A DNA stretch of 61,211 bases, taken from positions 1 through 61,211 of the forward strand of contig CAXHJY010000241.1 in assembly GCA_964016885.1 (NCBI GenBank), written 5' to 3'. The DNA is from Eledone cirrhosa. Lineage: Eukaryota. How positions within the stretch are numbered: position 1 is the first letter of the stretch; each line of letters starts with the position of its first letter. Under the pieces are notes generated by a model, which worked only from the letters and a program-made list of their open reading frames with translations, did not search any database and was not told where the DNA came from. Below, piece after piece: positions 16,233 to 17,099 of this stretch. The translations under genes were made by a program, and so were the position numbers.

Positions 16233-16238
<6 letters not shown>

Positions 16239-17092
16239 GTTAAAGATGTACATCCATATATGTATACTGAAATACTAGTATGTATATGAATACACACACG
16301 TATACATATGTAGATGTACCAAGTTTTTTCAATATTCCTTGTCTGGCTTTCTGGAGAATAGAGGAAAGGTGTTTCCTCAAAAACCAGTATGACTCTAAAA
16401 ACCGGTTTGTCTGTGTGTTTACATACAGAATAGCTGGCCACTCACAGTAAAGTGACCAGTGAAAAAACTTGGTACATCTACATATGTATACGTGTGTGTA
16501 TTCATATACATACTAGTATTTCAGTATACATATATGGATGTACATCTTTAACTTAATTGTTTAAGCGTCAGTCATACAAAAGTGAGTTACAAACGAAACG
16601 AAGTTTAATTTTGTTTCGTTATTTGTTTTTATCGTCTCCGTTGAACCGGTACTTACTCACACTCTATGCAAATTAGTCTGCCCACTACTAATTATCATAG
16701 AAAAAGCATATAACGATATGTGCTTTTACGATTCTCTAGAGAGGCCGGAAGATAGGTAAATATTGCTGATGAGTTGTAACAACAACGAAACTAGTTCAAT
16801 ATTCCTTGTCTGGCTTTCTGGAGAATAGAGGAAAGGTGTTTCCTCAAAAACCAGTATGACTCTAAAAACCGGTTTGTCTGTGTGTTTACATACAGAATAG
16901 CTGGCCACTCACAGTAAAGTGACCAGTGAAAAAACTTGGTACATCTACATATGTATACGTGTGTGTATTCATATACATACTAGTATTTCAGTATACATAT
17001 ATGGATGTACATCTTTAACTTAATTGTTTAAGCGTCAGTCATACAAAAGTGAGTTACAAACGAAACGAAATTTAATTTTGTTTCGTTATTTG

Positions 17093-17099
<7 letters not shown>
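16233..17099 (+). mobile_element. Non-coding hammerhead-bearing retroelement (retrozyme-like / non-autonomous Penelope-like): inverted fragment + partial tandem with 467-nt period
   Basis: Direct repeats 16330-16632 and 16797-17099 (one substitution seen); 16233-16329 is the reverse complement of 16462-16558; HHR at the unit junction; both ends lie in (TA)n. Confidence 0.85.
16759..16803 (+). ncRNA. Minimal type-I hammerhead ribozyme, intact
   Basis: AATATTG-CTGATGA-GTTGT aaca ACAAC-GAAA-CTAG-TT^CAATATT: 7-bp stem I, canonical core, 5-bp stem II, palindromic ACTAGT stem III, GUU triplet. Confidence 0.9.

Follow-up and report, generated by a model that had tools for sequence, protein, structure and literature searches.

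Positions 16233–17099 of the window (the whole stretch of Eledone cirrhosa DNA that was analysed, 61,211 nt of contig CAXHJY010000241.1) hold an insertion of a short, repeated element in a (TA)n microsatellite. Its parts are given in Table 1, where unit positions are numbered from the predicted ribozyme cut (unit 1 = 16330).

Table 1. Features of the insertion and its flanks (window coordinates)
Feature	Position	Strand	Remark
Left (TA)n target microsatellite	16197..16232		sequence read
Arm A, inverted copy of unit 131–229	16233..16331	-	100% match to 16460–16558
Outer end of arm A = fixed site A; putative reverse-transcription start 1	16233..16331	-	
Inner junction, TTCA, 4-nt microhomology joining both arms	16328..16331		overlap with predicted cut by chance
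Full retrozyme monomer of 467 nt, from one cut to the next; RNA predicted to be linear or circular	16330..16796	+	
Internal copy of the site A–site B "tail" region; putative reverse-transcriptase recognition element	16550..16632	+	
ATGCAAAT octamer; candidate internal snRNA-type promoter element	16666..16673	+	kept in 61%-identical sister family
Type I hammerhead, 2-bp palindromic stem III; predicted cut 16796/16797	16759..16803	+	
Partial second unit 1–303; outer end = fixed site B, putative reverse-transcription start 2	16797..17099	+	
Right (TA)n target microsatellite	17100..17126		

A first, sequence-only reading had described an inverted fragment, a 467-nt unit and a 303-bp restart, all within (TA)n, and the sequence bears out this anatomy. 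The inverted fragment is present, but the 97 bp claimed for it omits two shared bases; 16233–16331 is a 100% reverse complement of 16460–16558 over 99 bp, with the TTCA at 16328–16331 as shared microhomology. The unit opens with CAATATTCC at 16330, which is seen again at 16797 (period 467), and the 303-bp repeat at 16797–17099 carries the single mismatch noted before, 16603 G/17070 A (unit 274, G vs A). The GC content of the unit is 35%, and its folding z-score is −8 as a linear and about −10 as a circular molecule. As had been read, there is no credible open reading frame: no stop-to-stop frame inside the element exceeds 90 aa. The unit has no reverse transcriptase (RT) plus GIY-YIG open reading frame and the arrays described below consist of units alone, i.e. 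it is not an autonomous Penelope-like element (PLE).

The insertion is situated ~3.7 kb upstream of an exon for an Sp5-like C2H2 zinc-finger protein (20776–22404, + strand, splice acceptor near 20816), in an intron or upstream region (the first exon was not found). Named relatives of this gene are from molluscs, gastropods and a bivalve. A 332-aa frame with a weak zf-RVT match at 40538–41533 (+) is probably a fragment of a non-LTR retrotransposon. Rfam microRNA matches were rejected as (TA)n artefacts that score under their cut-offs.

The minimal type I hammerhead ribozyme (HHR) that had been reported, with a predicted cut between 16796 and 16797, is present and intact. Stem I is formed by 16759–65 and 16797–803, and between its strands are CUGAUGA (16766–72), stem II (16773–86), GAAA (16787–90), the palindrome ACUAGU (16790–95) and the GUU triplet. 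The Rfam HH9 model gives 37.7 bits (E-value = 2.4e-7), which is under its gathering score of 52. Among 11 motifs of this family and a sister family, both sides have changed in 6 of the 14 pairs of stems I and II and 94% of cells pair, figures that do not amount to a probability because the motifs are related sequences. The hammerhead core is 0.26% variable between insertions. The computed energy of the palindrome duplex is −8.0 kcal/mol, and this type I hammerhead, with its 2-bp stem III, is predicted to work as a dimer. Variation along the unit is 3.5% overall vs 0.3%–0.5% at unit 221–260 and 281–300 (the latter partly fixed by the search anchor), and the segment that separates the two sites, A and B, ranks with the best-conserved portions. 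The ATGCAAAT motif at 16666–16673 is an octamer; newt satellite 2 is cited as a precedent for an internal snRNA-type promoter element.

The family, a molluscan non-LTR retrozyme, comprises about 2,000 insertions and about 10,000 units genome-wide. In a DNA search that scored 37 of 267 candidates there were 240 matches, and among the 150 matches listed the identity is 98%–100%, many of them in arrays. Contigs from four sequencing runs of unspecified kind also cover the unit. Exact-pattern searches found 4,843 copies of the 45-nt ribozyme motif, many at 467-nt spacing, and 10,280 copies of an 18-mer at unit 241–258. The exact junction of unit 303 with (TA)n (site B) occurs 1,995 times genome-wide (control, 0), and junctions near unit 229–234 (site A) number 1,106 on the forward strand (control, 3), the reverse count being inflated by overlaps. 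Subfamilies extend down to 87% identity with the 16330–16796 copy. Within insertions the median divergence is 0.4% and the highest value 1.5%; thus all the insertions are young. The copy counts and mapped loci support the earlier description: the family is retrozyme-like and non-coding, it is young and present in high copy number, and its insertions have a PLE-type anatomy. The multimers of 467-nt period that had been anticipated are found as head-to-tail arrays at that spacing.

The units are tandem and each has a type I hammerhead, and the unit is non-coding and short with a GC content below 45%, as in retrozymes. Plant LTR retrozymes, unlike these simple tandem arrays with a type I ribozyme, have a type III hammerhead in LTRs round a unique internal region. 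By the testable features of its sequence, the element is a non-LTR retrozyme.

Three sets of loci were examined. Set 1 consists of 34 top-match loci, not chosen by their ends; set 2 (B-anchored) derives from the first 81 site-B matches on contig C1, which gave 80 loci including one duplicate; set 3 (A-anchored) has 28 site-A loci lacking an exact B match together with 8 extensions. Left out were L095 (duplicate of L094), five loci in which no element was found (L234, L238, L264, L265, L268) and, from the tree count only, L037.

The outer ends of the insertions, which are 3′ ends, fall at two sites ~70 nt apart, site A at about unit 229–234 and site B at unit 303. Pairing of inverted arms in the three sets together is A+B in 79 cases, A+A in 1–2 and B+B in none. 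In the set not chosen by ends, 23 of the 24 adjacent inverted pairs are A+B. The figure is 46/54 for the B-anchored set, where partner arms end at unit 226–236 and which is unable to show A+A, and 10/16 for the A-anchored set, which was chosen for lacking an exact B match and is enriched for exceptions. The remaining inverted pairs have one end disturbed or outside view. Two insertions, L245 and the four-arm L252, show A at both outer ends. Twenty loci appear to have a single arm; a short A remnant is present in 8 of these, and a B remnant in 0/20. TA flanks are found at 27/29 A ends and 26/29 B ends.

Two fixed ends ~70 nt apart, paired A+B, constitute the "tail" signature of PLEs. Further properties of PLE-mobilised elements are seen as well: the inverted arm is 5′-truncated, the target is an AT-rich microsatellite, and there is no poly(A) tail; a target-site duplication is unreadable in (TA)n. 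A tail at one end, inverted arms, a bias to (TA)n and non-autonomous multimers are among the PLE features described by Craig et al. (PMC8557442). For an anole PLE, Frangieh et al. (PMC11167929) report that two internal RT starts make the tail in vitro, and that both strands are nicked and extended at AT-rich DNA by a predicted dimer. PLE-type twin priming as such is very probable for the 467-nt family. The sequence-only reading had proposed mobilisation by a PLE protein; the insertion anatomy supports this part, and the accompanying idea that cleaved linear RNA is copied to its 5′ end is not supported as a general rule.

Each insertion carries one haplotype, shared by its two arms. Partner arms differ by 0.55% on average vs 4.6% to other loci (70 pairs), though no other sequence is as close as the partner in only 26 pairs; another is equally close in 21 and closer in 23. 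Among 79 insertions there are 63 distinct haplotypes, and arrays are mostly uniform. A private or rare variant ("private" being relative to the about 5%–7% of insertions sampled) is fixed across units in 21 of the 37 arrays of at least 4 units. For a variant to be fixed across all units, a single unit must be amplified into many. One example is L080+L263, in which 9,283 bases show 0 differences and three A>G changes are present in 19/19 units, in both arms. Arrays reach about 30 units, and the longest arm is about 14.3 kb.

The variants are biased. Read on the strand of the ribozyme, variants fixed in all units (at least 3) comprise 29 A>G vs 9 T>C sites (p = 0.0009); G>A and C>T are balanced at 10:10. 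In 140 insertions the fixed count is 29 A>G vs 10 T>C. When at least 5 units are required the numbers are 13 vs 6, which is not significant (p = 0.11). In a tree of 85 natural units, terminal branches carry 56 A>G vs 18 T>C. The 5′ neighbour of fixed A>G sites is A/U in 29/35 vs 66% (p = 0.024). A>G sites number 34 in both arms and 13 in one arm only.

Some loci display clusters of A>G changes. L102 has 8 A>G and 1 other change in all units of both arms, and L103 has 11 A>G and 0 other changes in all units. In L037 a single unit has 43 A>G changes and is otherwise unaltered; it ends at unit 460 beside the cut, and the adjoining units are unedited. Of the 43 sites, 42 have a 5′ A/U, and 0/15 A sites that follow G are changed. 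Fixed A>G sites overlap the edited sites of L037 at chance level (11/26, p = 0.52). Between the arms, beside the hyper-edited unit, there is foreign DNA of 600 bp (L037 positions 3677–4275) that includes a 68-bp direct repeat. Depletion of an upstream G is characteristic of ADAR, and lizard Penelope transcripts undergo heavy editing (PMC5625713). The DNA pattern suggests that, in the genome of a mollusc, A-to-I edits can pass into inherited DNA.

As judged from the sequence, the insertions probably arose by twin-primed reverse transcription in which a PLE protein made several laps of a monomer circle that had often been edited. In the proposed process, tandem copies would be transcribed, dimer hammerheads would excise monomers, a host ligase would circularise these and ADAR would edit some circles. 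A PLE protein would nick the (TA)n and both cut strands would prime cDNA on one RNA, one cDNA starting at unit 303 and the other at about 229–234. The RT likely runs round the 467-nt RNA circle until it falls off, because editing-type clusters repeat in every unit of some insertions. The two cDNA ends would then anneal over 1–7 nt, and this may produce the head-to-head arms. The 13 one-arm A>G sites and the unit 274 difference in 16233–17099 show that some insertions are not clean products of a monomer circle. In a minority of cases the template was probably a multimer, or was made of molecules joined at cleaved ends; long arrays were probably also reshuffled later at the DNA level.

A fuller version is that ADAR-edited ribozyme circles are rewritten into the germline by a PLE RT dimer, which primes from both target strands at two fixed sites on one 467-nt circle and makes up to ~30 laps; the chances for and against it appear evenly balanced. 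If true, the editing marks would serve as a lap counter, and the genome would furnish proof of rolling-circle retrotransposition, which has long been suggested for retrozymes and PLEs; by this route RNA editing would become the chief origin of heritable change among new copies. Editing and lapping may have taken place in the same generation or in different ones.

The template of PLE twin priming may instead be a linear multimeric RNA that arises by read-through of a parent array, by ligation of monomers or by jumps between cleaved monomers. This is unlikely, but several observations agree with it. HHR cleavage is not required for insertion in vitro (PMC11167929), variants are shared by only some units in 17 of the 37 arrays, in irregular or period-3 patterns, and L049 switches to the sister family at a homologous site; the hyper-edited L037 unit with its end at 460 is what would be expected if two molecules had been joined at their cleaved ends, though this is one case. 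Read-through alone, however, cannot spread a new variant to all units, as the 63 haplotypes among 79 uniform insertions would require. The rare editing clusters are present in all units of L102, L103 and L080, and the cut junction is copied without added errors (9/3,595 there vs 701/176,906 elsewhere, i.e. no excess).

It is improbable that insertions were born with ~1 unit per arm and expanded later as minisatellites do, through gene conversion or unequal crossing-over, a route that Li et al. (2026) discuss. Arm lengths do have a heavy tail (at least 5 units in 7 of 79) and the lengths of the two arms are uncorrelated (rho = 0.01, n = 58); both speak for such growth, as do the scattered shared non-A>G variants and period-3 pattern of some long arrays (L262/L067, L267 and L042). 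Length, however, is no higher with divergence (array length vs within-insertion divergence, rho = −0.03, n = 63), insertions of 7–20 units with zero internal differences exist (L080+L263, L093, L133), and already 27/79 B arms have at least 2 units. Some of the partly shared array variants are best read as later DNA-level reshuffling; post-insertion expansion is likely to act on top of the main mechanism.

A DNA-level or polymerase bias (transcription-coupled repair, RT error) is quite improbable as the source of the A>G excess in place of ADAR. Transcription-linked A>G asymmetry occurs in germlines, the bias is absent from internal branches of the 85-unit tree (21 vs 21), and minority calls show an excess of G>A as well (89 vs 57, p = 0.025). 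Against such a bias stand the clusters in which 8, 11 or 43 A>G changes are accompanied by 0–1 others, and the neighbour context in L037 fits the upstream-G depletion of ADAR (PMC5625713).

The sequence-only reading had as its headline that the 5′ ends of copies sit at the ribozyme cleavage site, which implies that RT copies self-cleaved linear RNA up to its 5′ end; this is highly improbable and is refuted as a general rule; at best it covers a few percent of arms. For the copy at 16330 the statement is correct as written, within the 4-nt ambiguity of the junction, but it is not a property of the family. In the 79 B-anchored insertions, 5/129 inner (5′) ends are within 5 nt of the cut (expected 2.55, p = 0.12), whereas arms with a mean length of 793 nt pass through the cut 201 times. 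Inner ends at unit 464–30 are in weak excess (16 vs 8.9 expected, p = 0.02 uncorrected), and a similar excess is seen at unit 211–240 (15 vs 8.1 expected). The second element in L031 has both arms ending at unit 7–8 with stutter.

Among the 7,392 copies of the cut site genome-wide, 12 have a purine before the cut, and junctions account for 7 of these (two resemble internal deletions). At a control site with 54 matches among 10,280 copies, 24 of the 30 examined are junctions, or about 43/10,280; junctions exactly at the cut (7/7,392) are thus rarer. It should be noted that the control site adjoins site A and is probably junction-rich, so the average stop rate of 1 per 793 nt is a fairer comparison, and the stop frequency at the cut is at most about 1.5x this rate. 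A pattern search found no copy in which (TA)n immediately precedes the cut. The pile-up of 5′ ends that had been predicted there was not found; the positions of inner ends are near-random, and random 5′ ends were what the earlier reading itself took to speak against it.

Inner junctions were examined in 39 cases; 12 have inserted bases, 1 with a long overlap was set aside and 26 are flush. Microhomology of at least 2 nt is present in 16/26 flush junctions vs 18% by simulation. Since microhomology is frequent and there is no cut-site pile-up, the junction at 16328–16331 is an ordinary microhomology join that overlaps the cut by chance. The best model is that the ribozyme defines the monomer and not the insertion boundary. 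The headline was thus a coincidence, while the evidence that the family offers on retrozyme copying is unusually direct.

A PLE family in the same genome (L144–L173, L077; e.g. L152, L168) is intact and highly active. Its open reading frames are 99% identical and up to 1,176 aa, with an RT match, and with C-terminal zinc-finger and YIG motifs that were read by eye; by the description in PMC8557442 it appears to be of the Neptune/Nematis type. Its inverted pairs have a short and a long end in 7/7 loci in view, the 3′ region is microsatellite-rich and the tail is about 35–40 nt. A motif scan found no canonical hammerhead in this family. A comparison of the retrozyme unit with the pLTRs of 80 PLE loci in several families (more than 10,000 GIY-YIG candidates exist) gave no convincing match; the intact family, 30 GIY-YIG loci and 20 long-ORF loci yielded chance-level matches of 14–22 nt or nested retrozyme copies. 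Thus no PLE in this sample has the unit as its pLTR. A TTCGTTT-like word shared by several tails is a candidate lead to the helper element. With a 467-nt substrate and intact PLE open reading frames in one genome, an in vitro test is possible. In L064 (1000–3330) there is a PLE of a different type, now decayed; just before its open reading frame, reading by eye showed what looks like a canonical type I hammerhead.

The kind of element is known. Metazoan non-LTR retrozymes have been described in mussel, coral and axolotl (Cervera and de la Peña 2020, PMC7229834), and the present family shares with them non-coding tandem repeats, a type I hammerhead per unit, a GC content below 45%, thousands of copies and strong self-pairing. 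The unit is longer (467 nt vs about 170–400), and expression was shown for those retrozymes whereas this family is known from DNA alone. Circle-templated tandem insertion or cDNA was proposed there and in PMC4209133; in PMC7229834, circle-templated RT and a PLE helper are hypotheses, and insertion ends, inversions and DNA-written editing are outside the analyses it presents, as far as its available text goes. Other prior literature includes PMC3681739 and PMC2220036.

Li, Clavereau and Pollet (bioRxiv 10.64898/2026.07.22.740005) treat retrozymes as non-autonomous PLE derivatives and likewise have PLEs mobilise them; their unit range of 51–972 bp includes 467. Their basis, as given in the preprint, is co-occurrence and pLTR homology in 35 genomes, no mollusc among them, whereas here it is insertion anatomy, no homologous pLTR having been found in the loci compared. 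They favour local tandem amplification after insertion, and they report cleavage in only 1/9 elements tested.

Among EN+ PLEs, comparison can be made with anole Poseidon PAc (PMC11167929) and with Naiad/Chlamys and the non-autonomous MRC1 (PMC8557442). According to these descriptions the shared features are two internal RT starts, a tail usually at one end, an inverted 5′-truncated arm, partial tandems, AT-rich or (TA)n targets, a hammerhead that does not mark the ends, and non-autonomous head-to-tail multimers. The 467-nt family differs in having no open reading frame, a tail of about 70 nt vs 30–40, and arms that can reach about 30 units. The pairing of A with B, which is near-obligate, has here been counted.

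In twin priming of L1, both target strands prime cDNA, and head-to-head arms are joined by microhomology. In contrast to L1, the present insertions have two fixed priming sites, lack a poly(A) tail and have arms that share many overlapping units.

PLE mobilisation and circle-templated tandems were previously hypotheses in the sources cited. The 467-nt family gives countable support to the first (the two-start signature and near-obligate A+B pairing) and to the second (editing clusters in every unit, in both arms). In the literature searched, mainly freely accessible papers, there was no report of a retrozyme from a cephalopod, of A+B pairing being counted or of editing serving as a lap tracer.

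The sister family is 61% identical to the 467-nt unit, collinear with it and has homologous end sites, with 5 clear A+B pairs in 30 loci. Its members (L180, L150, L174–L203; 575 candidates) have a period of about 460–550, internal (TA)n and the same octamer. Two sister loci, L189 and L183, which seemed to be A+A and B+B, were rejected as compound loci. In L049 (about 3317–3600) a unit passes into sister-family sequence at the homologous position 287, and this chimera suggests a template switch between families. Identical insertions whose flanks are duplicated too, a few to 18 kb apart, were seen in L094 and L095 and in L174, L177 and L183; these are either segmental or assembly duplications.

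The window holds a further type I hammerhead family, with stem III TATATA/TATGTA, at about 13692 (−) and 36700–37200, and its copies near 37036 are arranged as an inverted pair within (TA)n. Motifs of the TATATA/TATGTA type recur across many of the fetched loci, and thus this is probably another retrozyme or pLTR family.
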